Positions 8,051 through 30,110 of a stretch of DNA of 64,000 nucleotides are shown here, piece by piece. The position numbers were made by a program, and so were the translations under genes. The notes under the pieces were generated by a model. That model did no database searches, was not told the origin of the DNA, and was given only the letters and a program-made list of their open reading frames with translations. The DNA comes from an uncultured virus (IMG/VR IMGVR_UViG_2822699256_000006) (taxonomy: Duplodnaviria; Heunggongvirae; Uroviricota; Caudoviricetes): the IMG/VR virus record IMGVR_UViG_2822699256_000006; one strand, written 5' to 3'. Positions within the stretch are counted from its first letter, which is position 1. Every line of letters begins with the position of its first letter.

Positions 8051-8078
8051 AACTTTTACACCATCTTCCTTAATTTTA

Positions 8079-8651
8079 TTAAGCTACACCTGTACTACCG
8101 AAACCGCTATTTTTTCTTTCTAGTTCTACTAGTTCATCTACCAGTTTCATAGTAGCTACATGGTTTGCTTTTCCTTTGAATAGAGTTCTAAATGCATCAA
8201 TAATTGTAGAAAGGAATCCTTTATTAGGCTTAGCAAGCGGTGATACAACTAATTGTGCAATACGATCTCCCGGTTCAATATAAAAGGGTTTATCACCAAA
8301 GTTAAATATGTTGGCTTGCACCTCTCCTGTATAACCTGTATCAATAGTTCCATAAGCAGCCATTACTCCATTTTTCTTAGTAAGACCACTACGAGGACGT
8401 AAATCTCCAGTATGATGCATTGGAATATTAATGCCGAAACCTAATGGAATACAAGCCCTTTTACCAGGTTCAATAACAATAGATTCTTTGATTCGAGCAC
8501 GACAATCAAATCCAGCATCACTTGGATATTTACGTTGTGGGACAAAGCTTTCATCTGTTGTTTCTATTAGCTTTACGAGAAGATTTCCCCTTAATTCTAG
8601 TTCTCGATTTACTTTTGCTTGGTAATCTAAGTATGGTTGTGTTAACTCCAT
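8079..8651 (-). CDS. dut: Trimeric dUTPase
   Basis: AGFD, PRSGL, GTIDTGYTGE, GDRIAQL, R..GFGSTG motifs. Confidence 0.95.
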   Translation of the reverse strand: MELTQPYLDYQAKVNRELELRGNLLVKLIETTDESFVPQRKYPSDAGFDCRARIKESIVIEPGKRACIPLGFGINIPMHHTGDLRPRSGLTKKNGVMAAYGTIDTGYTGEVQANIFNFGDKPFYIEPGDRIAQLVVSPLAKPNKGFLSTIIDAFRTLFKGKANHVATMKLVDELVELERKNSGFGSTGVA

Positions 8652-8670
8652 AATTCCCTCCTATTTATAA

Positions 8671-8684
8671 TGTAATGCATTACA
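8671..8684. promoter_or_regulatory. Palindromic operator-like site TGTAATGCATTACA
   Basis: Perfect palindrome between extended -10 (TGATATAAT, minus) and the dut RBS. Confidence 0.7.
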
Positions 8685-8705
8685 TTTATTATATCATATA
8701 TTTTT

Positions 8706-9164
8706 TTATTCTAGTGGAATAGAATCCGTATTAAATATCATTTGAACGGATAACAGGTCATTAAAATAATTATCACAGCTAGAATGTGAGAATAGTTGTG
8801 TACTTTTTACACAACTAGCAATAAAGTTAGCGTGCCACCTATTGTCTTGATTTTGATGGTATAGTTGTACAAAAACACCATCACTGTTATCAATAATCAT
8901 ATTATGTAAATAAGGTTCAATTAACAATGTTAATGTAATAACACTAGTTGATAATCCTCTTATTGGTGGCAGTCTGTAGCCATATGACTGAAAATCTGGA
9001 CGAGGTTCAAATTTCCTCTCCACTTGGGCAGAACTACAGGCAACCACGTATTTTAAACCATCAATTGTGAATACTGCTGCAACCTTAGAGGAGATAAGGC
9101 AGCTTTCTATTTGTTTATCTATATCAAAAGTGTGCAAATCAATATACTTTTCAACAAGATTCAA
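8706..9164 (-). CDS. Hypothetical beta-rich protein, MNLVEKY N-terminus
   Basis: RBS AAGGAG..GGGG, TTG start; strand pattern reminiscent of tail-tube fold (unverified). Confidence 0.7.
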   Translation of the reverse strand: MNLVEKYIDLHTFDIDKQIESCLISSKVAAVFTIDGLKYVVACSSAQVERKFEPRPDFQSYGYRLPPIRGLSTSVITLTLLIEPYLHNMIIDNSDGVFVQLYHQNQDNRWHANFIASCVKSTQLFSHSSCDNYFNDLLSVQMIFNTDSIPLE

Positions 9165-9182
9165 CTTCCCCTATCTCCTTTT

Positions 9183-9527
9183 TTAAATTATTTTGGATCC
9201 TATTCCAATCAGGTACGTGAAATTTTCGTGTTCAGAAATGGAAATATTGGTTATTTTTAGTCCTTTTATCTCTTTTAGACCGTTTTCTTCTACAATGGTT
9301 GGTACTGCCTTTGCGATATCTTTAACATCAGCAAGGAAAAGAGCATTCTTAAAATATGTTTTCTCTAATTTAATACTAAGTGCGTAGCATCCCATATAAG
9401 CAGGATGCGGTTTTAATGAGACACCCTGCTGTGTTAGTTCGAATGTTTTTCCTTTTTTATCACGAATCCATAGTTTATATGTGCAATTGTTTTTTAAGTA
9501 GCACGTTACTAATTCTTTTCCTTCCAT
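9183..9527 (-). CDS. Hypothetical protein, KELVTCY near N-terminus
   Basis: RBS GAGGTG before ATG at 9527. Confidence 0.7.
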   Translation of the reverse strand: MEGKELVTCYLKNNCTYKLWIRDKKGKTFELTQQGVSLKPHPAYMGCYALSIKLEKTYFKNALFLADVKDIAKAVPTIVEENGLKEIKGLKITNISISEHENFTYLIGIGSKII

Positions 9528-9547
9528 ATCTATACACCTCATGATTA

Positions 9548-9664
9548 TTAGTAAGGGCGATCTTCATACTTATACTTCCACCAGTGCTTAAAATCTCTTA
9601 TGAAAGTCTTTCGCTTCAGTGATCGAACAGTAACATGAAATAGATGTTTTATATACGACTTCAT
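9548..9664 (-). CDS. 38-aa basic peptide (not in ORF track)
   Basis: RBS AAGGGG; MKSYIKHLFHVTVRSLKRKTFIRDFKHWWKYKYEDRPY*; fills the gap after dnaE. Confidence 0.5.
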   Translation of the reverse strand: MKSYIKHLFHVTVRSLKRKTFIRDFKHWWKYKYEDRPY

Positions 9665-9676
9665 ATAATCCCCTTT

Positions 9677-12600
9677 TTATGCTGGCATTTCAACTTCATA
9701 CATATCAACAAGTAATTTGAAAGAATTAGCTGTAAGTTTATCTCGGCTTTTCTCCCCTTTGATTGTTACTTTATTACCTAATCTTAGTGTTTGTTGATGC
9801 TTCTCCATCAGATAGCCCCATACTGTAACCATGATTACTTCTTCTTGAGTTTCTAATGAAAGTGTATAGTGTGTTTTTCCAGTACGAGCTTTCCAACTTT
9901 CTGCTGAACGAATAACTCCGGTAAATTGAGCACTCTTACCTTCCTCTAACTTTTCCCATTTAGATTTGATTGTAATGCTCACACCAAAACATTCTTTTTC
10001 AAAATCAACAATGTCACCTTTATTGGTTGTTTTAGGAATATGTTCATACTCTTCATTGCGGGATTGCATGTAGTTTCTTAGTAAGAGATTTCGATTTTTA
10101 CTTAGGTTATCAAAAGAACCAGACTTTATCAGTGCAGTAACCTTAGTCTTATTTACCTTTGATCCATCAACTCTTAATAGCATATCTTCAACAGATTTAT
10201 AAGGACGGTTATGAATAATTTCATCTACAGTTTCACCACTTACACCTGCTATACTAGATAACCCGTAACGTATTTCTTTTGATTCATTAATGGTTTCTGT
10301 TGTAAAGTCAGCAAATGAATTAGCCAAGAATATATCTTTTGCTTTGGTTTTGATAGGTGTCCATCCTGCCATTGATTCATTAATATCTGGAGGTAGAATT
10401 GTAATACCCATCTCTTCACACTCTTTCATATAATGAATGTTTTTAGGCTTATTATTCTTATCTTTCTTTCCTTCTGAGAAGGTTAACAGTGCTGCCATAA
10501 ATTCAACAGGATAGTAGCATTTTAACCATGCTGTAACGACAGATAACATTGCGTATGCAGCTGAATGTGCTTTATTAAAGCAATAGTTACCAAACTTTAT
10601 CCAATCAATTTTTATCTGAAGTAGAGTTTGTTCATCAAACCCACGATTAATTGCTCCTTCTACATCTGGTTGTTTCGCATAATCATAATCAACCCAAAGG
10701 GTAGGCTTTCCTTCATCATTTAATGGAACTGTAGAATTACCTTCAGCATCTTTTGGATACTGTAAAACAAGTTCTGCATGTCTTTTCTTGTATTCTTCAC
10801 TTCCGTAAATCATTAAATCTATCCATCTATTCATTAAGTCATGTTTTTTCTTTGATACCCCTTTTCGAATCATATCACTTTGTCCTAAAGTCAATCCACC
10901 TAGTATCCTTGAAGCTTGCATTATCTGTTCTTGATAAACCCAAACACCATAGGTTTCTTTTAATACTGGCTCTAAAGCATTAAATGGATATTTTACTTCT
11001 TCTCTACCCCACTTACGAGCAACGTATGTAGGAATTAGGTCCAATGGACCAGGACGTCCAAGTGCAACAATTACCGAAATATCTTCAAATGAGTTGGGTT
11101 TCATTTCAGAAATAATCTTTTTAAATAAATCAGATTCACATTGAAAAATTCCTGATAAATTTAAAGCATTATATACTCGCTCAAATACAAGAGGATCATT
11201 AATATCAATATCTCTATAGATATTCATTTTCCCCCATAAACCCGCAAACTCTAAAGTTTTCTTTACTACATCAAGTGTCTCTACTTTAAGTACATCAAAT
11301 TTCACAAGGAGCTTCTCAATCCAAACCATATCATATTGAGTGGTTTCAATTCCTTCACTATCAGTGCGAAGTGGTGTAACTTTTGTAAGTGGCTCAGGAG
11401 AAAGAACAATCCCTCCGGCATGAACACCTACCTGTGAAATATGGCCTTCTAAAGCAAGCATTGCTTCCCACCACTTAGGATACATTTGAGCATATTGCTG
11501 TACCATTGATTCTTCAGCATACGCTTCTTTTAATGTAATACCTGGTCGTGATGGAATCGCTTTTGCAAAAGCATCTTTAGTTGCTGCATCGAATCCAAGT
11601 GTTTTCCCTGTACGACGACATACAGCTCTAGCGGCTAATGTACCTTTTGTCCCGATTTGTGCAACCTTATCAGTTCCATATTTTTGTTTCATATGATTTA
11701 ATACAAATCGAGTTCCTTCATAACTGTAATCTACATCAAGGTCAGGATATCCAGCACGTTCAGGATTTAAGAAACGTTCAAATAATAAATCATATTTAAT
11801 AGGATCTAACCAAGTGATTTTTAAGCATCGACATACAAGTGAGCCTGCTCCAGAACCACGCCCTGGCCCTACTAGAAAACCTGCCTTTACAGTGGCATCA
11901 ATCATATCTTCTTCTATTAAGAAGTAATCTTGAAATCCTTCAGAACAGATAACATCTAATTCATATTGCAGTCTCTTGGAGTATTCATTTACATCAATGC
12001 CATCTGTTAAAGCCATTTCAAACAAGCCATCCCAAGCTTTTTTTCTTAATAACTCTTCAACTGTCTCTGAGCCATCTACAATAAATTTAGGGAATAATGG
12101 TTCTTTAGGCAAAGTAACATTTACCTTGTCGGCAATTCGCATGGTATTTTCCCATGCTTCAATATCATTACATTTTGCTAACATCTCTTCTTCTGTTTTC
12201 ATCCAGAATTCATGAGCGTATATAAGTCTACTCTCATCATCAATGCATTTTCCGATAGAGGAAGTTACCAAAACATCATGTATTTCATTATCTTCTTTAT
12301 TTGCGTAATGCACATCTGTTGTTAATATCTTAGGTGTATTTGTTTCTGCTGCAAGTTGATCTATTATAGCATTAACGTAAAGTTGTTTAGGAATTTCAGT
12401 AGCTTGCTTTTCCAAATAAAATTCATGAAACGTGTCTTTACATTCTTGAATGTGTTCTTTTGCTTCTTCAATGCGTCCCGCCAACACCAATTGGCTAAAA
12501 TAACTACCAAGACAAGCAGAAGTAGCAATAATGTTATTACCAAGACCCCTATCACGGATATAAGCCAAATCAGTCCGAGGATCAGAATAGAAACCATTGA

Positions 12601-13225
12601 TATGAGCATCCGATACAATTTCATATAAGTCTTCCAGTCCTTTGTTATTGATTGCTAGAAGAACCATATGAAAGTTCCCGTGATCTATGTAGTCGATAAT
12701 ATCTTTTCTAAATGCTTCAATCTTCTCTTTAGGTGTTTCTGGTAACTCAGGAGCTGACTCTTCTTCAAGGTCAACTGCATATACTGAAAACAAATCTAAT
12801 GTTTGTTCAGGTTCTTGTCCCATAGACATTAGATAGTCTTTTAAGATTGTATGAACATCTTCATCAAAAGCATTTTTATCTTTATCTACTTTACGAATAA
12901 AATCACGGAGAACCTTCAACTTTGGCTTTCCTTTTTTATCAGTCAGCATGTATTTCTTACATAGTTCAATACGTTTTGCTGCCATCTCTTCTTTTCTTAT
13001 TAAACGATTTTTTGTAGTGTATACTTCGCATCCTGGAATTGGTTTAATTCCATTCGCCAAACATTCTGCAATGAAATCCGGTATCGCACCACATACACCA
13101 TGATCAGTAATACCAAGGGCGGTTGTTCCAATCGATTTAGCTTTGGCTACTAATTGTTTTACCTTAGCTAGTCCATCTAATATGCTTTCTTCACTGTGAA
13201 CATGTAAATGACATCCTCTGCACAT
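9677..13225 (-). CDS. dnaE: DNA polymerase III alpha subunit (C-family)
   Basis: PHP HLHVHS, TDHG; GPGRGSGAGS; FERFLNPER; PDLDVD; HAGG; KFDVL; CFNKAHS; C-term OB fold; start moved to ATG 13225. Confidence 0.95.
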   Translation of the reverse strand: MCRGCHLHVHSEESILDGLAKVKQLVAKAKSIGTTALGITDHGVCGAIPDFIAECLANGIKPIPGCEVYTTKNRLIRKEEMAAKRIELCKKYMLTDKKGKPKLKVLRDFIRKVDKDKNAFDEDVHTILKDYLMSMGQEPEQTLDLFSVYAVDLEEESAPELPETPKEKIEAFRKDIIDYIDHGNFHMVLLAINNKGLEDLYEIVSDAHINGFYSDPRTDLAYIRDRGLGNNIIATSACLGSYFSQLVLAGRIEEAKEHIQECKDTFHEFYLEKQATEIPKQLYVNAIIDQLAAETNTPKILTTDVHYANKEDNEIHDVLVTSSIGKCIDDESRLIYAHEFWMKTEEEMLAKCNDIEAWENTMRIADKVNVTLPKEPLFPKFIVDGSETVEELLRKKAWDGLFEMALTDGIDVNEYSKRLQYELDVICSEGFQDYFLIEEDMIDATVKAGFLVGPGRGSGAGSLVCRCLKITWLDPIKYDLLFERFLNPERAGYPDLDVDYSYEGTRFVLNHMKQKYGTDKVAQIGTKGTLAARAVCRRTGKTLGFDAATKDAFAKAIPSRPGITLKEAYAEESMVQQYAQMYPKWWEAMLALEGHISQVGVHAGGIVLSPEPLTKVTPLRTDSEGIETTQYDMVWIEKLLVKFDVLKVETLDVVKKTLEFAGLWGKMNIYRDIDINDPLVFERVYNALNLSGIFQCESDLFKKIISEMKPNSFEDISVIVALGRPGPLDLIPTYVARKWGREEVKYPFNALEPVLKETYGVWVYQEQIMQASRILGGLTLGQSDMIRKGVSKKKHDLMNRWIDLMIYGSEEYKKRHAELVLQYPKDAEGNSTVPLNDEGKPTLWVDYDYAKQPDVEGAINRGFDEQTLLQIKIDWIKFGNYCFNKAHSAAYAMLSVVTAWLKCYYPVEFMAALLTFSEGKKDKNNKPKNIHYMKECEEMGITILPPDINESMAGWTPIKTKAKDIFLANSFADFTTETINESKEIRYGLSSIAGVSGETVDEIIHNRPYKSVEDMLLRVDGSKVNKTKVTALIKSGSFDNLSKNRNLLLRNYMQSRNEEYEHIPKTTNKGDIVDFEKECFGVSITIKSKWEKLEEGKSAQFTGVIRSAESWKARTGKTHYTLSLETQEEVIMVTVWGYLMEKHQQTLRLGNKVTIKGEKSRDKLTANSFKLLVDMYEVEMPA

Positions 13226-13247
13226 TCTCTTTCTCCTTCGCACTTAA

Positions 13248-13595
13248 TTACTCATTTATTGTTTCACTTACTTCTTCATTAGCTATTAAAATAGCTTTAT
13301 CTGATGCTTTTTCAGCATTTCGTTTTAATTGCTTTGCTTCTGATTCACGAATACGATTCATAATTGTTGAGGTTAAAACAGCAGAAGCTGTGAAAATCAA
13401 ACCTGTATCAGACGATTGTGTGATAATACTTCTCGTTTTCTTGCCTTGTGTTAAATCAAGAAAACGACCAGATTCTTTTGCTTGTTGTAATGCACGTTTA
13501 ATTGGTGAAGAATCTGGTCGATTTACCGTTAAAATTTTACCTGCATCTACATAATTTGAAAATCCGATATCTACGAAATGAATATTGTTGTTCAT
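13248..13595 (-). CDS. remA: RemA/DUF370-like extracellular matrix regulator
   Basis: FVDIGFSNYV...PDSSPIKR...AKESGRFLDLTQGKKTRSII, closely follows the RemA pattern. Confidence 0.8.
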   Translation of the reverse strand: MNNNIHFVDIGFSNYVDAGKILTVNRPDSSPIKRALQQAKESGRFLDLTQGKKTRSIITQSSDTGLIFTASAVLTSTIMNRIRESEAKQLKRNAEKASDKAILIANEEVSETINE

Positions 13596-13616
13596 AAATA
13601 ATTTCCCATCCTTTGA

Positions 13617-14531
13617 CTAAACTGAAATGTTTTTAATATACTTATCTATCAATTCCTGAGGTTCTTCAGTTGGAGGTAAATAATTGTTACGCTCTGTTTC
13701 TGTAGCGAGTTCACCATTTGTATCTCCCTCAATTACATTAGGAATTGCTTGGTTGTTTTGAATTGCATGTATAACTCTAAAAGAATCATAGTATGCTTTA
13801 CTGCCAAAGTTAAACGGGATCGGATATCTTTGTTTGCCATCTCTTTTTTTACTGTCTGCATGGCAATAAAAATTAAAATCACATTGTGAGCACTTATAAT
13901 AACTTGGTGTGTGTTTTGGTGGAATTGGAGGAGCTTTTCTTTCTTTTGCTAAAGAAATGCACCACTTTGCCTTTTCTTCTAACTGAGCACCTAATCTTTC
14001 GTCATATGAAAGCTGGTATTCCCATATTTCTTGAGTATCTTTATTTTCTACAAAAATAATACCTTTATCAATTAATAGACCTTGTTTCCTTACCAAGTGC
14101 AAATAGAATGTAAGTTGATCTTTATGCTCTTTTTTAGGCAAATTATTTTTCGCCATCCACTCAAAGCTTTTACTAAATGCACTTTTTAGTTCTACTAGAT
14201 AATCTTGACCCTGTGGGTTTTCAAAGCTATGGATTCGAATCCATGCATCTGTATGGCCACTAATATCATCTGCTTCAATTTTCATTTCATTTTGCACCAG
14301 AATCCCCATATCTTGAAATAGATTTTCATATCTTTCATGAAGAGAATGACCATTCTCAAAAATCCTCATTAGCTGGTCATCTGGCATGCTTTTTGGAAGC
14401 ATCAACATATCAAAGACTATTTTTCTCTGACACATTCCAATTGTTGAAGGATGTAGCTTTCTCATTGGTCTTGTGCCATTTTTATGTTGTTCTCTGTAAT
14501 GTTGATTAATTAAAGGTCCTAATACTGTCAA
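13617..14531 (-). CDS. Cas4-like PD-(D/E)XK exonuclease with Fe-S cysteines
   Basis: HPSTIGMCQRK, G..LH, SGHTD, VELKS, QLTFY, CSQCDFNFYC. Confidence 0.85.
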   Translation of the reverse strand: MTVLGPLINQHYREQHKNGTRPMRKLHPSTIGMCQRKIVFDMLMLPKSMPDDQLMRIFENGHSLHERYENLFQDMGILVQNEMKIEADDISGHTDAWIRIHSFENPQGQDYLVELKSAFSKSFEWMAKNNLPKKEHKDQLTFYLHLVRKQGLLIDKGIIFVENKDTQEIWEYQLSYDERLGAQLEEKAKWCISLAKERKAPPIPPKHTPSYYKCSQCDFNFYCHADSKKRDGKQRYPIPFNFGSKAYYDSFRVIHAIQNNQAIPNVIEGDTNGELATETERNNYLPPTEEPQELIDKYIKNISV

Positions 14532-14551
14532 TTACACTCAATCCCTTTGTA

Positions 14552-14565
14552 TGTAATGCATTTCA
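14552..14565. promoter_or_regulatory. Operator-like site TGTAATGCATTTCA at promoter +1
   Basis: 6 nt downstream of a minus-strand TTGTTT-17-TATAAT promoter. Confidence 0.7.
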
Positions 14566-14618
14566 TTATTAATTATACAATAAGAATAGCAAGCAAACAA
14601 CAGGAAACAGAAGGAATA

Positions 14619-14864
14619 TTAAGAAATTTCAAGCTTTTCTTTGATTTCTTTCAGATTCTCCTCATTGCATGCTGCGATTGAATCAAACCATTTATGTGGT
14701 ATAAAAAGATTACCTATTCGTATAAGCTCATCTTGGAAGTCCACATCCCCTAATTTAACGCCCTCTGTGTAGATTCCATAGTGTTTTTCTTTATTTGAGC
14801 ATACAAGAGCTACTAGAGGCGTTTCTAATACTTCTAATGGATTCTGTTTGGCATTCTTAGACAT
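14619..14864 (-). CDS. Hypothetical protein
   Basis: RBS AAGGGG, overlaps upstream gene. Confidence 0.65.
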   Translation of the reverse strand: MSKNAKQNPLEVLETPLVALVCSNKEKHYGIYTEGVKLGDVDFQDELIRIGNLFIPHKWFDSIAACNEENLKEIKEKLEIS

Positions 14865-15649
14865 TTCAATTCCCCTTTGTTTAACATGTTTTGTAATTGT
14901 AATTCAATTCTTTTTCTAATGCGATGGATAGATTTTGAATGATATGGAAGCATTCTTGCTATTTCTTTGTCTGTATATCCTTCATAGTAGTATTTTGCAA
15001 GGATGTAACGCTCATGACTCTTTAGTTCACTGAAAGGGAATTGAGATGAATCTCCATGAATCCACTTTGGATGACTAAGTTCTAAGCCTGTAGGCATTTC
15101 TATCTCTAATATACTAAGGTTTTTACTCTCTAGCTTATCTAATGCTTCCTCTAGTGTTTCTGCATCATCTTCATTTGTATGATTACTTTTATAGAGCATA
15201 TCACTATGATCTAATAAATCTTGGTTCATACCATCAATATATCTTTTCAGCATAAATTTATAAGATACATATATGTATTTCTTAAAGGAACTTCCTTGCT
15301 CCTTATAGTGGCGAGCGCATAATAAAAAAGGAATTAGCAATTCGGACTTTAGTTCATCCTTGGTATGATTGCGAAATATCCACTTCAAATAATTTAATGC
15401 TTTATAAGCTTGTTTAATGGATTCTTGCGAATGAAACTTACCTTTTTTTAGATTCTTTACAACACCTTTATTGTTGATAAAGCAAGATAAGAAACAACGG
15501 ATATCATAATTCCTAAAATTAATTGCATCTTTTGTTAGTAGGGTGTAATACTTGTTTAGAAAATTTTCATATTCTTTTACGAGTGGTTCAGATATACCTG
15601 TCTGCTGGTATAACAAGACTTGTGTATCCTTTGATGTAATTGTACTCAT
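14834..15649 (-). CDS. Sigma-70-like / region-4 HTH transcription factor
   Basis: SFKKYIY region-2-like; LKSHERYILAKYYYEGYTDKEIARML...SIHRIRKR region 4. Confidence 0.65.
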   Translation of the reverse strand: MSTITSKDTQVLLYQQTGISEPLVKEYENFLNKYYTLLTKDAINFRNYDIRCFLSCFINNKGVVKNLKKGKFHSQESIKQAYKALNYLKWIFRNHTKDELKSELLIPFLLCARHYKEQGSSFKKYIYVSYKFMLKRYIDGMNQDLLDHSDMLYKSNHTNEDDAETLEEALDKLESKNLSILEIEMPTGLELSHPKWIHGDSSQFPFSELKSHERYILAKYYYEGYTDKEIARMLPYHSKSIHRIRKRIELQLQNMLNKGELKCLRMPNRIH

Positions 15650-15655
15650 TCGTTG

Positions 15656-16207
15656 TTACTCCTTATCAGCTAATCGCTCCATTAATACAATATTTTCTTC
15701 TTCTTTTGTGTAAATATCTATTTTAAAGTAAGGCTTTTCATCATCCTTTACACGGTGAAAATCCATAACTCTTGGTAATGCAAACTCATCATCTTTATAA
15801 ATAAGACCAGTAAATGCATCCATCATCATCTTAAAGGCGTTATGTGTATCACGTGTTTTCTTATCATTAGGGAAGTAAGCTGTAAGCTCTACAATTACCT
15901 TCTGCTTATCAGTTGTTTGCCACCCTGTTTCTTGCATCCACATTTGGACGAACGCTTGCCATTTATCAAATAACTGAAAAGCAGGGTCGCTGTATCTTTG
16001 TCTACCTTTTGCCATTCTGACATAGATTTCATTTACACTGGGATAAACGCCTGAATCCCCATTCGCTTCACTATGTACTACTTTTACTTTCTTCATTTGG
16101 TTCTTGCCATTTGCAAGTTTAATTGTCTTTCCGTTTTCATCTCTTTTGGCTCGTTTTCTTGTAAATGTGCCGAACATCATCATTGGTAGAATTAGTGACT
16201 GTCTCAT
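15656..16207 (-). CDS. RusA-like Holliday junction resolvase
   Basis: PSVNEIY, RDTHNAFKMMMDAFTG..YKDD. Confidence 0.75.
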   Translation of the reverse strand: MRQSLILPMMMFGTFTRKRAKRDENGKTIKLANGKNQMKKVKVVHSEANGDSGVYPSVNEIYVRMAKGRQRYSDPAFQLFDKWQAFVQMWMQETGWQTTDKQKVIVELTAYFPNDKKTRDTHNAFKMMMDAFTGLIYKDDEFALPRVMDFHRVKDDEKPYFKIDIYTKEEENIVLMERLADKE

Positions 16208-16208
16208 A

Positions 16209-16688
16209 TTAATAATTCACCTTCATATTCATCATTTGGATTGCAGTCAATGATAAAACCATCGCTTCTCCAAGGAATCCACCTTGTTTATCATAACGCT
16301 TTATGTAATTGAAATCCCTGCCATTGTAATGGTCTTTATCAATGCTGTATTCATTTTTGGCATACTTCAGAATAGTCGCCTGCAGCAATGCATCACGAGT
16401 AATGTTAATTTGATCCTTCATGCGAAGGTCATCCCACTCACTTTCTTCTTCTTCAATGAGTGTATTAATTACTTCACAATACTCTTCAAATGTTAATCTG
16501 CACTTACTAGATAATTGCTCTAGTTTGTCTGGCTCTAGAATTAAGTCAATTGTTTCTATGCCATTATCAGCCTTCTGATCTAAGATAACAATTTTATCAT
16601 TGTTTTCTAGCTCGGCTGCTTGGCTTTCCCTCATAAAATTTTTTCTAATCCCGATTCTTGGCTGAGTTGGATTGCTCATCTTCTTCAC
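16209..16688 (-). CDS. Hypothetical protein
   Basis: Operonic ORF with RBS AAGGAG. Confidence 0.7.
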   Translation of the reverse strand: MKKMSNPTQPRIGIRKNFMRESQAAELENNDKIVILDQKADNGIETIDLILEPDKLEQLSSKCRLTFEEYCEVINTLIEEEESEWDDLRMKDQINITRDALLQATILKYAKNEYSIDKDHYNGRDFNYIKRYDKQGGFLGEAMVLSLTAIQMMNMKVNY

Positions 16689-16756
16689 TCTCCTTAATTA
16701 CTGGTTTCTGTGCTAACTCTTTCATATCAATACCTTTATCAAGGTCTTCTATAATA

Positions 16757-16927
16757 TTAATCATTGGACTCATCGTTTTCATCTCCTATCATAATTTCAA
16801 TTGCTGTAGCTGTAACCGGGACTTTAAAAGTTTTGGCTAAAAATATAGCAAAATGCATATTAGTTTTCCCTGTGGCTCTTGCCCCTCTAGGGAAAGGATA
16901 GCTATAGTTTTCTTTTGTTTCCTTCAT
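16757..16927 (-). CDS. 56-aa ORF with Walker A-like GARATGKT (not in ORF track)
   Basis: RBS AAGGTG; first gene after promoter/operator; MKETKENYSYPFPRGARATGKTNMHFAIFLAK... Confidence 0.55.
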   Translation of the reverse strand: MKETKENYSYPFPRGARATGKTNMHFAIFLAKTFKVPVTATAIEIMIGDENDESND

Positions 16928-16943
16928 TTTTCTTCACCTTATT

Positions 16944-16957
16944 TGTAATGCCTTTCA
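16944..16957. promoter_or_regulatory. Operator-like site TGTAATGCCTTTCA
   Basis: 8 nt downstream of minus-strand extended -10 TGCTATAAT. Confidence 0.65.
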
Positions 16958-16983
16958 TACGCTTCATTATAGCATAAAAAAAT

Positions 16984-17012
16984 AAAAAAGACAGGCATAA
17001 AACCTGTCTTTT
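16984..17012 (-). terminator. Intrinsic terminator after subtilase
   Basis: AAAGACAGG/CCTGTCTTT stem with T-run. Confidence 0.75.
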
Positions 17013-17904
17013 ATGGAAGTAGTGCTAAGTTGATAATTCCAGCACCATATACCTCATCTCGCCCTTGTGCACCAAGGTCTTTAACCATATGTTGTAATAG
17101 TTCATGTACTGCTGAAACGGAAGGTTTCGCACCATTATGTAGTTGTTTATAACGTGCAAGAATAAGTGCGATTGCACCAGATATAATTGGTGTTGCCATT
17201 GATGTTCCAGATAAACGTGCGTAATGCCCTTCTTTATATGTAGATAGGATATTTACACCAGGAGCACAAATTTCATTCTCTATGCCATGATTTGAAAACT
17301 GTGGATGTTGCATGTTTTCATCTACAGCTGATACAGCTATTACTTCATCATATGCAGCCGGATAACAAACCTGACTATTCTCATTTCCTGTAGCTGCTAC
17401 AAATACGATTCCTTGTGCTGTAGCTTGTTTAATGACTTGATATAACACTTCTGGTGGTCGGCTAGATGTTCCTAGACTCATAGAAATAATATCTACTTTA
17501 CGATCTATGGCCCATTTGATACCACGAATCATTGCTTCAAATCCGCCTTTTCCATTGTCGCCTAGTACTTTAGCACAATATAATTCTGCTTTAGGTGCGA
17601 CACCAACCATTCCTATACCATTGTCCATTGCGGCTACAATACCTGCTACATGAGTTCCATGTCCTTGCATATCTTCATATTGGCTAGGTGAATTAGTAAA
17701 GTCTATATACTCTTTCACATTATCTATTAAATCAGGATGATCTTCATCAATACCTGTATCAAGAATAGCAACTTTAATACCTTCCCCTTTAGTTTTCTGC
17801 CAAGCTAATTCCACTCCAATAGCTTTAAGTCCCCAATCAATTAGGTCTTTTCCTATTTCAGGAGATACAACTTGCCTTACTACATAGTCTGCTGCTTTAA
17901 ACAT
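17011..17904 (-). CDS. S8 subtilisin-like serine protease, no signal peptide
   Basis: Catalytic motifs ILDTG, HGTHVAG, GTSMATP; oxyanion AATGN. Confidence 0.95.
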   Translation of the reverse strand: MFKAADYVVRQVVSPEIGKDLIDWGLKAIGVELAWQKTKGEGIKVAILDTGIDEDHPDLIDNVKEYIDFTNSPSQYEDMQGHGTHVAGIVAAMDNGIGMVGVAPKAELYCAKVLGDNGKGGFEAMIRGIKWAIDRKVDIISMSLGTSSRPPEVLYQVIKQATAQGIVFVAATGNENSQVCYPAAYDEVIAVSAVDENMQHPQFSNHGIENEICAPGVNILSTYKEGHYARLSGTSMATPIISGAIALILARYKQLHNGAKPSVSAVHELLQHMVKDLGAQGRDEVYGAGIINLALLP

Positions 17905-17952
17905 TATGGAAATTCCTCCTTGGAATTCCCTGTATCCTTTTTTACTATTTTA

Positions 17953-18414
17953 TCATAGCGCACTATATATTGTTACGGCTAGTTTGGTTAGGGCCATAAG
18001 TATAATGAAAACTATAACCATCCCTATTTCTATTTGCATATTATTCCATAAAGAGTTTTTCTTTTTTCTTATTTTATATTCTTCTTTTGTTTCATTTATT
18101 CTTTGGTCTACATACCTAGTTCCTAGACCTGGTATCGTTGAGCTCGGTGTGCGATTTGTTTCATCTCCTAAGGACTCTAGTAAGTCACTTATGGTATTTA
18201 ATGAAGGTTCAACTGATTGATCTTGAATATTTGCTTCCCTACTACGAGAAAAGCCAACTGGCATCGTACTTCCCATAACATAAGTTGGCGGAGCGGGTCT
18301 ATGCCATGTACGTATACCTTGATTTCTATGCGAATCAGCAGAAAGATGCATACTTAAAAATAAGTTATTTTTTGCTTTAGCATTTAAGTCTAAATAAACT
18401 TTAACTAGCTCCAT
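17953..18414 (-). CDS. Hypothetical protein, MELVKVY N-terminus, C-terminal TM anchor
   Basis: ORF with terminal hydrophobic helix. Confidence 0.65.
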   Translation of the reverse strand: MELVKVYLDLNAKAKNNLFLSMHLSADSHRNQGIRTWHRPAPPTYVMGSTMPVGFSRSREANIQDQSVEPSLNTISDLLESLGDETNRTPSSTIPGLGTRYVDQRINETKEEYKIRKKKNSLWNNMQIEIGMVIVFIILMALTKLAVTIYSAL

Positions 18415-18420
18415 ACTCAA

Positions 18421-18576
18421 TCACACTACAATCTTTTTAATTGAACCGCATGCACTACATACTCTTGTGTGAACTTTTATCCTATATTTTTTAGGACCTT
18501 CCCATTTGCTGTCTACAAATGAATATTCATGTGTTCCTTTTCTCTTACACTTCCAAACTTTAAAGAGCTTTAACAT
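18421..18576 (-). CDS. 51-aa Cys/His zinc-ribbon-like protein (not in ORF track)
   Basis: RBS GGAGG; MLKLFKVWKCKRKGTHEY...RVCSACGSIKKIVV*. Confidence 0.6.
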   Translation of the reverse strand: MLKLFKVWKCKRKGTHEYSFVDSKWEGPKKYRIKVHTRVCSACGSIKKIVV

Positions 18577-19003
18577 ATTGTTCTACCTCCAGCATATTCA
18601 AAAAGTATTGATTATATTTGTTCTTATACTCATGCTGATAAATAACTTTAACTATTCCCACCTGTGCAATATGCTTCGCACAATTTTCGCATGGCATATG
18701 CGTACAATACAACGTACTTCCTTTTAAGTGACTACGATCTGCATTTAAAATAGCATTCATTTCAGCATGAATACATAATATGCATCTGCCTTGATCATTA
18801 AGTAGACATCCATCATCTGTGCAATGTTCTTGATTATGTACACTACCGTTATATCCTGTTCCAATGATTCGATTATCTTTTACAATAACAGCTCCAACCT
18901 TTAACCTATTGCAGGTTGCTCTTTCTGCTACATCTTCTGCCAGCTTCATGAAATACTCATTCCAACTTGCTCTTGATTTATTCCTCTGCTGTATGTTTTT
19001 CAT
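18560..19003 (-). CDS. dCMP deaminase (ComEB-like)
   Basis: SWNEYFM, TCNRLKVGA, GYNG, HAEMNA, PCENC. Confidence 0.9.
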   Translation of the reverse strand: MKNIQQRNKSRASWNEYFMKLAEDVAERATCNRLKVGAVIVKDNRIIGTGYNGSVHNQEHCTDDGCLLNDQGRCILCIHAEMNAILNADRSHLKGSTLYCTHMPCENCAKHIAQVGIVKVIYQHEYKNKYNQYFLNMLEVEQYVKAL

Positions 19004-19229
19004 AACCTAATTCTCCTAACATATATTCAACTGCACCTGACCCTCTTTTCTCCGCTTCAATAGATAAGGCTTCTTCAAACGTAATCATTTTGCAATTTCC
19101 ATCTGTATGTTTTAATAACCATCTTGAAGCAGAAAAGCAGTTCATATTATAAAAAAGAACTCCTTCTTCTAAAGTCCCAATTGCATAATCTTCATCTGGC
19201 TGCTTAGCTATATAATGCATCTTATTCAC
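18978..19229 (-). CDS. Hypothetical protein
   Basis: Operonic ORF. Confidence 0.6.
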   Translation of the reverse strand: MNKMHYIAKQPDEDYAIGTLEEGVLFYNMNCFSASRWLLKHTDGNCKMITFEEALSIEAEKRGSGAVEYMLGELGYEKHTAEE

Positions 19230-19232
19230 TCC

Positions 19233-19478
19233 TTAATACCAAGATGGCTTTTCTCTTGACCAATCCTGATCTGTCGTATGTTTTTGTTCTAAACAATGTT
19301 TGCAGTAGTATATATTCACTTTTTTCCAATGTGTATTCCAGGGGCCTTCTGGTTTGGCAGTTCTAATTGATTCCTGATAGATATATTCGTGTTTACATGG
19401 TGCAGGGGATTTCTTCATTGGACCCGTACGTTTAGGTTTAATTGTCATAGTAGGTTTCTCTAGTGGATTATTAAACAT
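19233..19478 (-). CDS. Small Cys/His zinc-ribbon-like protein
   Basis: CKHEY...YYCKHC; start moved to ATG after GGAG. Confidence 0.65.
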   Translation of the reverse strand: MFNNPLEKPTMTIKPKRTGPMKKSPAPCKHEYIYQESIRTAKPEGPWNTHWKKVNIYYCKHCLEQKHTTDQDWSREKPSWY

Positions 19479-19482
19479 ATTA

Positions 19483-20229
19483 TTATCTCCATTCCATACA
19501 TAAATTTTTAGCTGGACATTTATCACAAGCAAAGGTTTCTCTTGGATAAAACCATCCTTTTTCCATAGATTCTTTTACTAAATCAACTGTTTTATATAAG
19601 CGTTTATAGTCCATTCGTTTCCTTGTAACAAAATGAGTAGTTCCTTTACGAAGAATATGTACTGCTATACTATCTATCTCCTGCTTAAACATAGAATGAT
19701 ATGCCATTGCCATTAGAGTTAAACCCATATCAGTTTTCTGCCAAAAATCATCATATTTACTTTTACCTGTTTTATATACTGCAATTTCAACACCTCTTGC
19801 TGTATCACGTACAACCGGGATGTTTCCTCTAACATAAAAATCATTTCCAAATGGTATGCGAAAATCTAAATTGGATGCTAAGACTTGATCTGGCTCATAT
19901 CTTTGCTGTCGGTAGAAGGTATATAGCATATCAATTGCTTCTAATTCTTTTTTTCTTTGTTCAGCTTTGCCGCCTACATGTATATCATATATATCTAGAT
20001 TTCCATACCAGATACTACTTAACTTTTCTTTTAGCTCATCGAATCCTAATTGTGTTCCGCCTTTTAAGTGAAAATAATAATAATTCAATACAGATTGTAT
20101 ACTTTCTCGAATACCATCATTTGCTGTAATCTTTTTGCAAACTTTATCAATCTCTGTAAATTTAAACCGTAATGGACAAGATTTAAAGTCATACAAATCC
20201 GCTACTGTTATCTCAAATTGTTTACTCAT
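19483..20229 (-). CDS. PD-(D/E)XK (AddB/Cas4-like) fold protein, apparently catalytically degenerate
   Basis: CPLRF and CDKCPAKNLC Fe-S cysteines; GNIPVV and IAVYKTG in place of G.ID and DYKTG. Confidence 0.75.
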   Translation of the reverse strand: MSKQFEITVADLYDFKSCPLRFKFTEIDKVCKKITANDGIRESIQSVLNYYYFHLKGGTQLGFDELKEKLSSIWYGNLDIYDIHVGGKAEQRKKELEAIDMLYTFYRQQRYEPDQVLASNLDFRIPFGNDFYVRGNIPVVRDTARGVEIAVYKTGKSKYDDFWQKTDMGLTLMAMAYHSMFKQEIDSIAVHILRKGTTHFVTRKRMDYKRLYKTVDLVKESMEKGWFYPRETFACDKCPAKNLCMEWR

Positions 20230-20335
20230 ATAAACCATCCTTTGACTTGTCTACTATTTTTCCTTTTTAATGATTGGTTTATATTGTTAGCATATTTCTT
20301 ATCATGTGCATTAAGCACTGCTTTCTGATATGGTC

Positions 20336-20431
20336 TTAGACCTTTAGGAAAAATGCTTCTATAAATGAATTTTCTATTTCTGCATAGGTATTATTTATAC
20401 TTTTATTAATATAACAAGAAACTAGCTCCAT
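20336..20431 (-). pseudogene. Truncated MELVSCY-tagged ORF (31 aa) with coding-like continuation in another frame
   Basis: RBS AAGGGAG; MELVSCYINKS...; alternate frame reads YLCRNRKF...LRPYQKAVL...GWFI* to ~20228. Confidence 0.45.
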
Positions 20432-20445
20432 ATATTTTCTCCCTT

Positions 20446-20754
20446 TTATTCATCATCATTAAACTCATCGAACCAAAATGCTTGCGCCGTTAAACCTCTT
20501 GCGCCTGCCTGTCTTGCTTCACGCATTGTTCTAATAGAGCTTTCATTACTAAGACGAAGAGATGAGTTCGCTCTCTCCTGAGGAGTTGCACCTAGTGTGT
20601 ATATCGGTGAACGCTCTCTACTTACTGAATACGATATAGGATCTATTGTACCAATCACTTTACCATTAAAGGTTGCTACTATATCTGCACCCCGGAAAGT
20701 TACTTTTTCTCTTTTCTTTTCTTGAATAGCAATTATTTGTTGTACTAATTCCAT
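20446..20754 (-). CDS. MELV-tagged protein containing a tail-tube-like segment
   Basis: TFRGADIVATFNGKVIGTIDPISYSVSRERSPIYTLG; C-term ARGLTAQAFWFDE; start uncertain (20754 or 20769). Confidence 0.65.
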   Translation of the reverse strand: MELVQQIIAIQEKKREKVTFRGADIVATFNGKVIGTIDPISYSVSRERSPIYTLGATPQERANSSLRLSNESSIRTMREARQAGARGLTAQAFWFDEFNDDE

Positions 20755-21038
20755 TGAACAATTACACACTCCTCTGGAGGATAGAATCTATTAATCTTAT
20801 TTACTGAAAAATCAACTCTAATACTATAACGATAAGCACGTATAATTACTTGAAAATAGCTATCTAAACCTCTATTAATCACTTCTTCTCTTATTCTGCT
20901 TTTCATCTTATAAATGGTTTGATCTGAGAATGCGCTATAAAGAAAATCTTTTCGTATATCCTCTAATAACGATTCCAGTGTAATGTATGGAATAAATCTA
21001 TCTTTGTGAATTCGATTATATCTTCTTATTAAATCCAT
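20745..21038 (-). CDS. Hypothetical protein, MDLIRRY N-terminus
   Basis: RBS AAGGGTG. Confidence 0.7.
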   Translation of the reverse strand: MDLIRRYNRIHKDRFIPYITLESLLEDIRKDFLYSAFSDQTIYKMKSRIREEVINRGLDSYFQVIIRAYRYSIRVDFSVNKINRFYPPEECVIVQWN

Positions 21039-21048
21039 GCAATCACCC

Positions 21049-21231
21049 TTATGCTGCTAGTGGAAGTCCACTATATTTTTTGATATGTGTAATACGTAAA
21101 TATTTATTAATTAACTCTTGTGGTTTAGCTTGCTTACTCGTAATTACTGCTTCTGTGATATAGTTACTTTTAAAGCGCCATTTCATGCTAGTAAGCGGTT
21201 TGCGTTGTTTATAACGAGAAACTAATTCCAT
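21049..21231 (-). CDS. 60-aa protein with two copies of the ELxxxY motif
   Basis: MELVSRY... and PQELINKYL; RBS AAAGGATG. Confidence 0.7.
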   Translation of the reverse strand: MELVSRYKQRKPLTSMKWRFKSNYITEAVITSKQAKPQELINKYLRITHIKKYSGLPLAA

Positions 21232-21286
21232 GCAGAATCATCCTTTATTATTCTTTAGTTTTCTATCAATATCTTTATTATACAAT

Positions 21287-21326
21287 AAAAAAGAGAGGAT
21301 ATCCTCTCTTTTTGAAATGCATTACA
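21287..21326 (-). terminator. Terminator after nrdF with adjacent operator-like site
   Basis: AAAAAGAGAGG-ATAT-CCTCTCTTTTT hairpin; TGAAATGCATTACA at 21313-21326. Confidence 0.75.
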
Positions 21327-22301
21327 TTATTTGTCGAAGTTGAATACAAAGTCATCATCTGTTAATTTTTCTACGTTTGTAGCCTTTACATATCCGTTCC
21401 CTTTTACAGAGAAGAAGTCGTGATTCTTTGTATCTGTACGCAAACCATTTAGAACAATTGGATTAATCTCTTCTTCTTTGAAGTATGATTCTAAACCTAA
21501 GTTCATAAGGGCTTTATTTGCATTATATCTAACAAAAGCATTCACATCATCTACTAAGTTAATAGGCGTATAGATTTCTTCCGTATAAGCCAGCTCAATT
21601 TCATACAGTTCAAGCAATAGGTCCATTGTTTCTTTTCGTACTTCTCTTTGTTCTTCCGACTCCATTTGAGAAAATAATTGCTGCGCTAGTATGCCAACGA
21701 ATACTCCGTGAATGCTTTCATCACGTAAAATTAAGTTAATAATTTCACCACTAGCAGTCATTTTTCCTTGGCCAGCTAAATAAAGCGGATAGAAGAAACC
21801 ACTATAGAATAAATAACTTTCTAGGAATACGCTTGCTACCATTGCCATGTATAACTCTTTTTTCGTTACTTCAGGCTTTAATAAGCGACGATAATATCCA
21901 GTAATTATTTCTGCCTTTTTTGTTAGCAGCGGGTGTTGATCTACCCATTCAAAGATATCATCAATTTCTTCTTCGGTTGCTAACGTTGTGAAAATATGAC
22001 TGTAACTCTTCGCATGTACTTCTTCCATAGCACCCATAAAAGCTAATACACTTTTCGCCTGTAGGTTTTCAAGATGAACAAGTACAAGTGGCATCCCTTC
22101 GCCACCTTGCTTCGTATCTAAAAGTGTTAAACCACCTAATACACGCTTGTAAGCTGTTTGTTCTTCTGCAGAGAGATGAACCCAAGTGTTTTTATCTGTG
22201 GAAACAGCAATCTCTTCTTCTGTCCAAAACTGAGATATATTTTGTTTCCAAAACATTAAACTAAATTCGTCTTCTTTTTTGTTCCAGTTAACTGCTTGCA
22301 T
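21327..22301 (-). CDS. nrdF: Class Ib ribonucleotide reductase beta subunit
   Basis: LTLLDT, MEEVHAKSY, LESYLFYSGF, RDESIHG, HDFFSVKGNGY. Confidence 0.95.
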   Translation of the reverse strand: MQAVNWNKKEDEFSLMFWKQNISQFWTEEEIAVSTDKNTWVHLSAEEQTAYKRVLGGLTLLDTKQGGEGMPLVLVHLENLQAKSVLAFMGAMEEVHAKSYSHIFTTLATEEEIDDIFEWVDQHPLLTKKAEIITGYYRRLLKPEVTKKELYMAMVASVFLESYLFYSGFFYPLYLAGQGKMTASGEIINLILRDESIHGVFVGILAQQLFSQMESEEQREVRKETMDLLLELYEIELAYTEEIYTPINLVDDVNAFVRYNANKALMNLGLESYFKEEEINPIVLNGLRTDTKNHDFFSVKGNGYVKATNVEKLTDDDFVFNFDK

Positions 22302-29867: not shown

Positions 29868-30110
29868 TTAATAGTAAGTAATTTTCATATTTTTTGAATC
29901 GCCATCTATTGCTAAAGGAAAAATAGATTCTTTAAACCACTCTTGTTCGTTAATATTCATTTGCTTTGGAGCAAGTATTTGATCTACTCTTAACCCTCTT
30001 AAATTTTCAGCCACACTTTTAACGGGAATCATAATAATTCTTTCAAATCTAGTGCTAACTTCCTTACTAAAATCTCTTGTAACAATTAGGATATTCTTTT
30101 TCTTTTGCAT
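29868..30110 (-). CDS. Hypothetical protein
   Basis: RBS GAGG; contains LRGLRVDQI. Confidence 0.6.
   Translation of the reverse strand: MQKKKNILIVTRDFSKEVSTRFERIIMIPVKSVAENLRGLRVDQILAPKQMNINEQEWFKESIFPLAIDGDSKNMKITYY

Follow-up and report, generated by a model that had tools for sequence, protein, structure and literature searches.

The 64,000-nucleotide DNA stretch of the uncultured virus IMGVR_UViG_2822699256_000006 (IMG/VR; Caudoviricetes), called here the window at its full length, carries a short open reading frame (ORF), ORF20446, which sequence comparisons confirmed as a truncated paralog of a contractile-tail tube protein, composed of the N-terminal two-thirds of the tube core and an added helix (MELVQ...). 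A second gene of the window, ORF17953, is probably a relative of it. The comparisons established the descent of ORF20446 from the tube, its truncation and relocation, the selection acting on it, the tag that it has in common with other ORFs, and its recurrence in other lineages. What the two products do is argued from analogy: they may be decoys or antagonists of host tube sensors, to which a probability of about one in three is given. Tail-tube paralogs are already known, while truncated, relocated and tagged copies appear to be new within the searches made and the portions of the literature consulted.

ORF20446 and its probable sibling

By sequence, the source of the window is a jumbo phage-plasmid of about 207 kb from the Bacillus cereus group and of the 0305phi8-36 kind. 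The closest public record was the B. thuringiensis plasmid NZ_CP097261.1 (W02; 259,656 bp), which is collinear with the whole window and covers 98% of its positions 8000-22000 with 93% identity, and W02 supplied the tube, sheath and terminase that were compared in place of those of the element itself. No close DNA match to the window was found in the phage collection, and protein look-ups found homologs of window ORFs in B. cereus-group strains. The two genes and their relevant parts are as follows.

20446..20754, minus strand: ORF20446, 102 amino acids, ATG at 20754, stop codon at 20446-20448; truncated tail-tube paralog with an N-terminal MELV tag
20578..20709, minus strand: tube-matching segment of ORF20446 (residues 16-59), which covers the N-terminal arm and both beta1 and beta2 and reaches into the hairpin tip, according to hhalign and the tube model
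20449..20526, minus strand: C-terminal part of ORF20446 (residues 77-102), a helix and the tail RGL..AFWFDEFNDDE, aligned in order with helix alpha1 and PPFD of the tube
17953..18414, minus strand: ORF17953, 153 amino acids, ATG at 18414; tagged, predicted tail-anchored membrane protein with a tube hairpin-tip motif
18238..18303, minus strand: tube hairpin-tip match HRPAPPTYVMGSTMPVGFSRSR of ORF17953 (residues 38-59; hhalign P 5.1e-5)
17971..18027, minus strand: C-terminal hydrophobic helix of ORF17953 (residues 130-148), with RKKK ahead of it; Kyte-Doolittle mean 2.45 over 19 residues

An earlier reading of the letters without database searches, referred to as the sequence-only reading, had noted a tail-tube motif of large Bacillus myophages in both genes, and the strings that it quoted were all present in the ORFs to which it assigned them, including a mini-ORF at 30110. 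For ORF20446 this was right. The PHROGs family phrog_9206 matched residues 11-61 (E 2.8e-11), and tblastn retrieved six phage records, among them a KLEB27-3 'tail tube protein' (52%, E 2e-9) and phage Edson, which has two matching places, the best of them under a hypothetical protein. A tube hidden Markov model (HMM) built from 104 sequences and run on the 1654 six-frame segments of the window had ORF20446 as its sole significant match (E 2.5e-15), and hhalign of the ORF20446 family against the tube family gave E 4.8e-14 with a probability of 98%. ORF20446 was 57% identical to tube A of W02 (E 4.5e-14), and identity to tubes ranged from 52 to 58% across the first 45-50 residues.

The identity of the matched family was examined separately, as phrog_9206 is labelled 'major head protein'. 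Its source proteins, gp140 and gp141 of 0305phi8-36, are noted as 'tail tube' and 'tail tube paralog', and in KLEB27-3 the homologs are annotated as tail tube proteins. AlphaFold2 was used with a 35-sequence alignment to model a family member taken from an IMG/VR phage (pLDDT 68.2), and Foldseek with this model returned 46 matches in the PDB at E <= 0.001. Since these were led by known tubes (phage 812, PVC, AFP and Hcp), with the SPR tube also among the 46, the phrog_9206-type family is a true contractile-tail tube. A sequence profile search of the PDB with the tube family gave no match. In the model, residues 26-46 and 53-72 form a long beta2-beta3 hairpin with its tip at YTMGSPDPRSFSRG. The RefSeq product name 'major head protein' of gp140 and gp141 (ORF140 and ORF141; L002:8001-10343) contradicts the records' own notes, and the wrong label was carried into phrog_9206 and into the annotation of a Moorella phage.

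Alignment to the W02 tube paralog B revealed where the tube protein was shortened. Paralog B matched ORF20446 over query residues 24-101, and BLASTP aligned the two collinearly over residues 19-96 with 32% identity (E 2e-10), pairing 'SNESSIRTMREARQAG' with tube helix alpha1 and 'AQAFWFD' with the invariant 'DEMPMFD' of the PPFD motif. The RG......DE ending, which had suggested a terminase Walker B motif, thus aligns with PPFD and corresponds to the point where the tube protein was cut. An earlier assignment of this end to tube strand beta3, obtained by hhalign with bridging sequences, was replaced by the collinear paralog B alignment. What remains of the tube in ORF20446 begins with the N-terminal arm and strands beta1 and beta2, continues through a hairpin tip that has degenerated and a beta3 shortened by 9 residues in the paralog B alignment, and closes with helix alpha1 and the "FD" motif; the C-terminal half is missing. 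A complete tube core, with PPFDIT...NEYG... and the C-terminal block, was not found, as ORF20446 stops just after FD, and it lacks the C-terminal strands required to complete the tube fold. The 0305phi8-36-like tubes gp140 and gp141 are collinear with residues 16-96 of ORF20446, which differs from them in length (102 against 190-300 amino acids), in its shortened tip and beta3, in the added MELV helix and in lying about 125 kb from the tail module. Family-invariant tube residues (G16, D18, S37, G49 ...) are present in the window's ORF20446, although not in every ortholog.

ORF20446 lies outside the tail module and away from the sheath gene. In W02 the tube genes are located at about 65-67 kb, beside the sheath gene, while the ORF20446 ortholog is at 191.5 kb among DNA-metabolism genes, in agreement with the earlier statement that the gene lies far from the structural module. 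Its start at ATG 20754 is the choice of gene callers and of the homologs, and this ATG overlaps the last codons of the preceding ORF20745, which suggests translational coupling. Comparison with W02 gave a dN/dS of 0.29 (Fisher p 0.0011). The family comprises nine protein clusters of 49-100% identity, all of about 100 amino acids, in which mean pairwise identity was 0.82 for the tag helix, 0.50 for the middle region and 0.84, the highest of all parts, for the C-terminal 26 residues. On these comparisons, ORF20446 is a conserved gene under purifying selection which derives from the 5' two-thirds of a tail-tube gene.

For ORF17953 the proposed tube motif is probably right, with profile comparison and shuffles in its favor and a marginal result from the single-sequence HMM search. 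The tube HMM matched it weakly (E 0.41, rank 3 of 1654), tblastn in the phage collection found no match, and in W02 its own ortholog was the sole match. The motif PPTYVMGSTMPVGFSRSR is present, and hhalign of 12 ORF17953 homologs against the tube alignment gave P 5.1e-5 over 22 columns (probability 67%), a score which none of 150 column shuffles reached (maximum 24.6 versus 34.8 observed). BLASTP against three tubes gave E values of 0.03-0.05 and aligned residues 43-61 to residues 43-61, that is, at the same N-terminal distance as in real tubes. A weak collinear alignment to tagged proteins with a tube N-terminus ran from the tag through 'SAD'/'GAD' to 'Y.MG' (P 0.0014, probability 17%). The hairpin-tip motif was invariant or nearly so in 12 of 12 homologs, and dN/dS relative to W02 was 0.35 (p 1.6e-4). 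Taken at the level of sequence, ORF17953 is likely to be tube-derived and a more diverged sibling of ORF20446. A tail anchor is probable for the protein, and by the positive-inside rule the motif would face the cytoplasm.

The N-terminal tag and relatives in other phages

The tag of ORF20446 (MELVxxY; M[ED/N]L[VIT]xxY) was found at the start, or within the first ten residues, of 8 window ORFs, which start at 8651 (dUTPase), 9164, 9527, 18414, 20431, 20754, 21038 and 21231. With the strict pattern and longest-start ORFs, 3 occurrences were observed against 0.05 expected among 187 window ORFs, and 4 against 0.10 among 700 ORFs of W02. A looser scan of W02 gave 14 matches, nine of which are ORFs of at least 60 amino acids with a ribosome-binding word ahead, and five of those nine lie within 2.6 kb. 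The codons of the tag vary among copies (GAA/GAG, TTA/CTA/CTT/CTG, GTT/GTA/GTG/ATT/ATA), and therefore the tag is best described as conserved at the protein level and not as a DNA repeat. It points to a common handling step for at least eight proteins of the element.

A profile search of 1.84 billion representative proteins retrieved 41 proteins at E <= 0.001, of which 12 were read: seven were tube proteins or fragments of them, and five had the tag and the tube segment together. These five, which come from public assemblies (P0034, P0030, P0031, P0055 and P0056), have the same architecture as ORF20446, in which a MELV(Q) helix is followed by the tube beta1-beta2 segment, and hhalign between the ORF20446 family and the tagged tube-N family gave E 1.6e-20 over tag and tube segment. 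P0034 (101 amino acids) also ends in RGL..AF.FDEF as ORF20446 does, while the other four, of 139-203 amino acids, have tails unlike that of ORF20446, of the basic type RRKK...GGRxxWN. The alignments thus describe a family in which tag and tube N-terminus are constant and the tails vary.

Phage WH1 (vB_BceM_WH1) has a third, small tube-like gene, gp277 (173 amino acids, 'hypothetical'), downstream of its ribonucleotide reductase genes, in addition to two in the tail module. The product shares TFRGAD and PISYSVSRE with ORF20446 (61% over 46 residues, E 4e-17). Unlike ORF20446, it is without the MELV tag and still has FSRG at the tip, and its C-terminal half is longer and dissimilar. Phage Edson has a match of a similar kind. 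Two scans of viral contigs, with alignment A1 and with the tagged tube-N alignment (A6), gave 160 loci with tube genes only and no tagged ORF, the matched frame having been read at 10 of the 80 loci of the tagged tube-N scan; a scan with alignment A5 found one close relative. Tail-module copies only were found in all five complete IMG/VR jumbo genomes of tube-family phages. The IMG/VR genome of a 231 kb phage (G002; L009/L163) has at 182035-182184 a tube match in a 66-amino-acid open frame with an internal TGA, ending right after '...FTMGG'; an intron, stop recoding or interruption of the tube gene are possible causes. The literature searched had, in its accessible portions, no report of tube decoys or of tail-tube copies that are truncated and relocated, the papers retrieved being on the P74-26 tube and not relevant, and the papers listed on the tail tube paralogs of 0305phi8-36 (including PMC2147016) made no mention of small relocated tube copies in the parts consulted.

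Possible roles of the truncated tube copies

Among the phage features that bacterial immune sensors recognise are conserved structural proteins, the tail-tube hairpin included. According to the respective reports, Avs16 contacts the tube beta-hairpin, which is the ring-stacking interface (PMC13581612), and DSR2 is activated by monomeric tube only, whose beta2-beta3 loop inserts into the sensor, while a tube with this loop replaced formed a stable complex with DSR2 and lost activation (PMC10981675). The loop-replaced SPR tube is thus a laboratory precedent for binding without activation.

We propose that ORF20446 and ORF17953 would be made before the real tube protein accumulates, would display a non-polymerising copy of the tube beta2-beta3 hairpin face, that is, the ring-stacking surface, and would thereby occupy DSR2-type or Avs16-type tube sensors of the host and leave them inactive. 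Since DSR2 and Avs16 reportedly read the hairpin region that has been retained, this role is plausible. By analogy, ORF20446 looks like a natural loop-replaced variant: it has beta1 and beta2 together with a changed tip and beta3, and would be unable to polymerise. There is a conceptual likeness to DSAD1, the anti-DSR2 protein of SPbeta, and to the SPR tube-deltaLoop1, by which DSR2 is occupied without being activated; according to the same source, DSAD1 resembles no known structure and works allosterically (PMC10981675), whereas sensor binding by the two ORFs is hypothetical. As a selected, truncated and relocated copy of the sensed tube surface in several phage lineages, the ORF20446 family would be a candidate counter-measure by self-mimicry. 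A broader and slightly more tentative proposal is that jumbo Bacillus phages and phage-plasmids may have a dedicated family of small decoys of DSR2/Avs16-kind receptors, made of tube hairpin and tag, with tails tuned to particular sensors or locations. PADLOC gave no match for these ORFs, its library being one of defence and not of anti-defence proteins.

Several observations weigh against the sensor-decoy role. The sensed tubes, that of SPR and the Avs16 targets, are related to the present tube family at the level of fold only, and an isolated hairpin could equally activate a sensor. In the ORF20446 family, the tube-like segment had a mean identity of 0.65 (minimum 0.29), below both the tag and the C-terminal tail, and one lineage (P0009) lacks the tube-invariant G-A-D, which counts against strict mimicry. 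The AlphaFold2 model of ORF20446 itself was poor (pLDDT 49.5); it shows four strands and two helices, the latter at residues 2-13 and 65-84.

The target might instead be the tube subunit, a possibility that we rate as unlikely. By binding tube subunits through the strands that both have in common, the truncated copies could keep the element's own tube monomeric until assembly, or they could cap or poison the growing tubes of related phages during co-infection or superinfection. The strands and helix responsible for packing inside a tube ring and from ring to ring are present in ORF20446 and the C-terminal half is not, in the manner of a dominant-negative fragment, and a resident phage-plasmid would profit from excluding rival phages. 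However, a poison would strike the element's own tube too, because the identity of ORF20446 to the W02 tube (57%) is no different from that to foreign tubes (52-58%). In addition, the genes sit with DNA-metabolism genes and not with tail genes, both here and in WH1, and the five complete IMG/VR jumbo-phage genomes assemble tails with no such gene in any of them (5/5). Even if the target were the own or a rival tube, the case would show a 5' piece of an essential virion gene turning into a new small gene.

A co-opted scaffold was judged unlikely to the same degree. The tube strands would then be a leftover fold, and the N-terminal helix would act on a non-tail target together with the variable tails, which are acidic-aromatic in ORF20446, a membrane anchor in ORF17953 and basic in the tagged tube-N group. 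The distribution of conservation within the ORF20446 family, with tag and C-terminal tail as the most conserved parts, is consistent with such a role, as are the loss of tube-invariant residues in P0009 and the presence of the same tag on proteins with no tube likeness, including the dUTPase. Across the wider family, however, it is the tag and the tube segment that persist while the tails change, and the near invariance of the hairpin-tip motif in the 12 homologs of ORF17953 also speaks against this reading.

Loading into the virion is a much less probable role. In the internal proteins of phage T4, the capsid-targeting sequence is a short common N-terminal peptide on otherwise unrelated, small and fast-evolving phage proteins. 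The tag, or the tube N-terminus, might likewise be a signal for loading into the tail or head and for ejection into the next host, and its occurrence as a protein-level signal on at least eight window ORFs, far above chance, would fit. The tagged ORFs differ from the T4 proteins in that the tag is also on a dUTPase and in that their packaging or cleavage would be hypothetical; moreover, ORF17953 has a membrane anchor and the genes lie outside the structural module. Contractile injection systems do have N-terminal loading signals, according to a preprint (10.1101/2023.11.13.566157).

Decaying duplicates of structural genes with no function are disfavoured and would be a still more improbable origin for the pair. 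Decay is suggested by a tagged ORF at 20336-20431, which is cut to 31 amino acids against 72 in W02, by the mini-ORF 16757 (dN/dS 0.65, p 0.29), and by a 140 kb derivative plasmid which matches window 8006-17942 only and has neither tube-like ORF in its flank. The sequence-only reading had named a dN/dS near 1 as the mark of debris, and the values of 0.29 (p 0.0011) for ORF20446 and 0.35 (p 1.6e-4) for ORF17953 reveal purifying selection, so that these two genes are not debris. Their length and motifs are also conserved in 9 and 12 protein clusters, respectively, and distant family members exist.

Least probable of all is an array of decoys for several targets, made of tube, sheath and terminase fragments as had been proposed, since the tube part alone stands: BLASTP, phmmer, Pfam, PHROGs and NCBIfam gave no sheath or terminase similarity, which refutes those parts at the sequence level, and what had suggested a Walker B motif at the end of ORF20446 is the PPFD motif of the tube. 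Of the proposed mimics of virion proteins, what is retained is thus a pair of conserved tube mimics outside the tail module; judged by sequence, ORF20446 and ORF17953 are tube mimics only and not members of an array of many virion-protein fragments.

Other tagged ORFs and the genomic setting

The other ORFs concerned, together with two hairpins which may delimit the transcription unit of the tube-like genes, are listed here.

8079..8651, minus strand: dUTPase with a tagged N-terminal extension (MELTQPY); the PHROG match starts at residue 28
8706..9164, minus strand: ORF8706, 152 amino acids, tagged (MNLVEKYIDLH); dN/dS 0.46, p 0.11
9183..9527, minus strand: ORF9183, 114 amino acids, ATG at 9527, ELVTCY at residues 5-10; dN/dS 0.11, p 1e-6
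16757..16927, minus strand: mini-ORF with GARATGKT, 56 amino acids; dN/dS 0.65, p 0.29
16986..17012, minus strand: terminator-like hairpin after the S8 peptidase gene, likely downstream end of the unit
20336..20431, minus strand: short tagged ORF (MELVSCY) after ORF20446, 31 amino acids in the window against 72 in W02
20745..21038, minus strand: ORF20745, 97 amino acids, tagged (MDLIRRY), strongly conserved; dN/dS 0.13, p 1.1e-4
21049..21231, minus strand: ORF21049, 60 amino acids, tagged (MELVSRY), first gene past the nrdF terminator; dN/dS 0.29, p 0.05
21288..21313, minus strand: terminator-like hairpin that follows nrdF directly and bounds the likely unit upstream
29868..30110, minus strand: mini-ORF with LRGLRVDQI, between the helicase and primase genes

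Searches of Pfam, PHROGs, NCBIfam and PADLOC gave no match for ORF8706, ORF9183, ORF17953, ORF20745, ORF21049 or the mini-ORF 16757. The tube-like strand patterns attributed earlier to ORF8706 and ORF9183 were not borne out by comparison with tubes (hhalign probability 0.1-0.2%, with 0.16% for ORF8706; BLASTP E > 1). The ESM Atlas neighbors of ORF8706 were 'phage tail' and tail-tube clusters (DUF2001, T4 gp19, Phi812 tube; 0.89-0.91, with 143-152 of 256 features in common), and a tube-like fold is possible for this protein as a language-model lead only. A profile search of the PDB and a search of Pfam found no match for ORF8706, whose homologs are confined to this lineage. For ORF9183 the ESM Atlas gave no tail-tube lead, and this ORF is conserved with no likeness to any virion protein. 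The virion-derived ORFs are therefore one clearly (ORF20446), one probably (ORF17953) and one possibly (ORF8706), and on the comparisons made all of them point to the tube.

ORF20745 had been taken for a C-terminal segment of the sheath, a resemblance that was lost on comparison with the C-terminal 459 amino acids of the W02 sheath (BLASTP E 7.4) and with six-frame W02, where no match was found. A weak BLASTP match of ORF20745 to gp028 of KLEB27-3 (E 0.007 in a set of 7 sequences) was rejected as chance, the W02 tube paralog C giving E 11. The large terminase subunit (TerL) of W02 was located among 44 of 81 long ORFs scanned, and phmmer found no match to it among the small window ORFs; likewise, a terminase ATPase domain with Walker A and Walker B was not found in them, and Pfam, PHROG and NCBIfam gave no match. 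The terminase-like character suggested for the two mini-ORFs did not hold. The mini-ORF 16757 keeps 'RATGKT' in W02 but the first G of GARATGKT is not conserved, and its sequence indicates that it is not a P-loop protein, with selection indistinguishable from neutral; the LRGLRVDQI motif was not found in W02. Outside the window, W02 has at 97669-98391 (minus strand), about 6 kb from the terminase gene, a tagged ORF of 240 amino acids (MELISKY...) with degenerate Walker A-like (...AGRSSWKT...) and Walker B-like (...RRGLNFVDCDVMFDEFDD...) strings, which had no Pfam or PHROG match and no significant BLASTP similarity to TerL.

All long ORFs of the window are on the minus strand. Its genes encode an endolysin, dUTPase, DNA polymerase III alpha subunit, RemA-like protein, Cas4-like nuclease, sigma factor, RusA, S8 peptidase, dCMP deaminase, PD-(D/E)XK nuclease, NrdF, NrdE, holin, DnaB-like helicase and primase, and from about 33.9 kb onward there are very large 'virion structural proteins', which are matched by PHROGs built on 0305phi8-36-like phages. 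A scan of genome contigs with the Cas4-like nuclease found distant proteobacterial relatives only and no orthologous DNA. The tagged extension of the dUTPase consists of about 27 residues ahead of the domain, begins MELTQPYLDY and is also kept in W02.

Both terminator-like hairpins have 11-bp stems followed by T runs, and they enclose a unit of about 4.3 kb; terminator-like sites numbered 5 in the stretch against 1.9 expected, while promoter-like sites were not enriched (18 against 22.8 expected) and the scan located no promoter. Between the hairpins are ORF21049, ORF20745, ORF20446, the short tagged ORF, the PD-(D/E)XK nuclease, two small ORFs, dCMP deaminase, a 51-amino-acid ORF, ORF17953 and the S8 peptidase, so that both tube-like genes are probably in one non-structural transcription unit as delimited by sequence. 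The unit mixes nucleotide-metabolism enzymes with five small tagged ORFs. The DNA alignment of window and W02 breaks between 20231 and 20368, at the short tagged ORF (region 20229-20431), which is a variable or decaying member of the cluster.

The 140 kb plasmids NC_011774.1 (pG9842_140) and NZ_CP132202.1 have the dnaE, RemA-like, sigma-like and S8 peptidase genes in common with the window (86% identity). Their match covers window 8006-17942 only and ends short of both tube-like ORFs, and the feature table of pG9842_140 has a peptidase followed by a holin, with neither tube-like ORF listed in the flank. These plasmids look like reduced derivatives that lack the tube-like ORFs.

The S8 peptidase gene (window 17011-17904, minus strand) is directly downstream of the tagged ORF17953. 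In PADLOC its product matched the 'subtilase' model with E 1.3e-30 and the IetS models more weakly, and no obvious signal peptide was seen by eye in the translated N-terminus; the enzyme might be a processing enzyme for tagged proteins or serve in defence. The RemA-like (DUF370) gene (window 13248-13595, minus strand; Pfam E 1.5e-18) is directly downstream of the phage dnaE. RemA is a regulator of the biofilm matrix in Bacillus, and given this role it is an unusual companion of a replicase gene.

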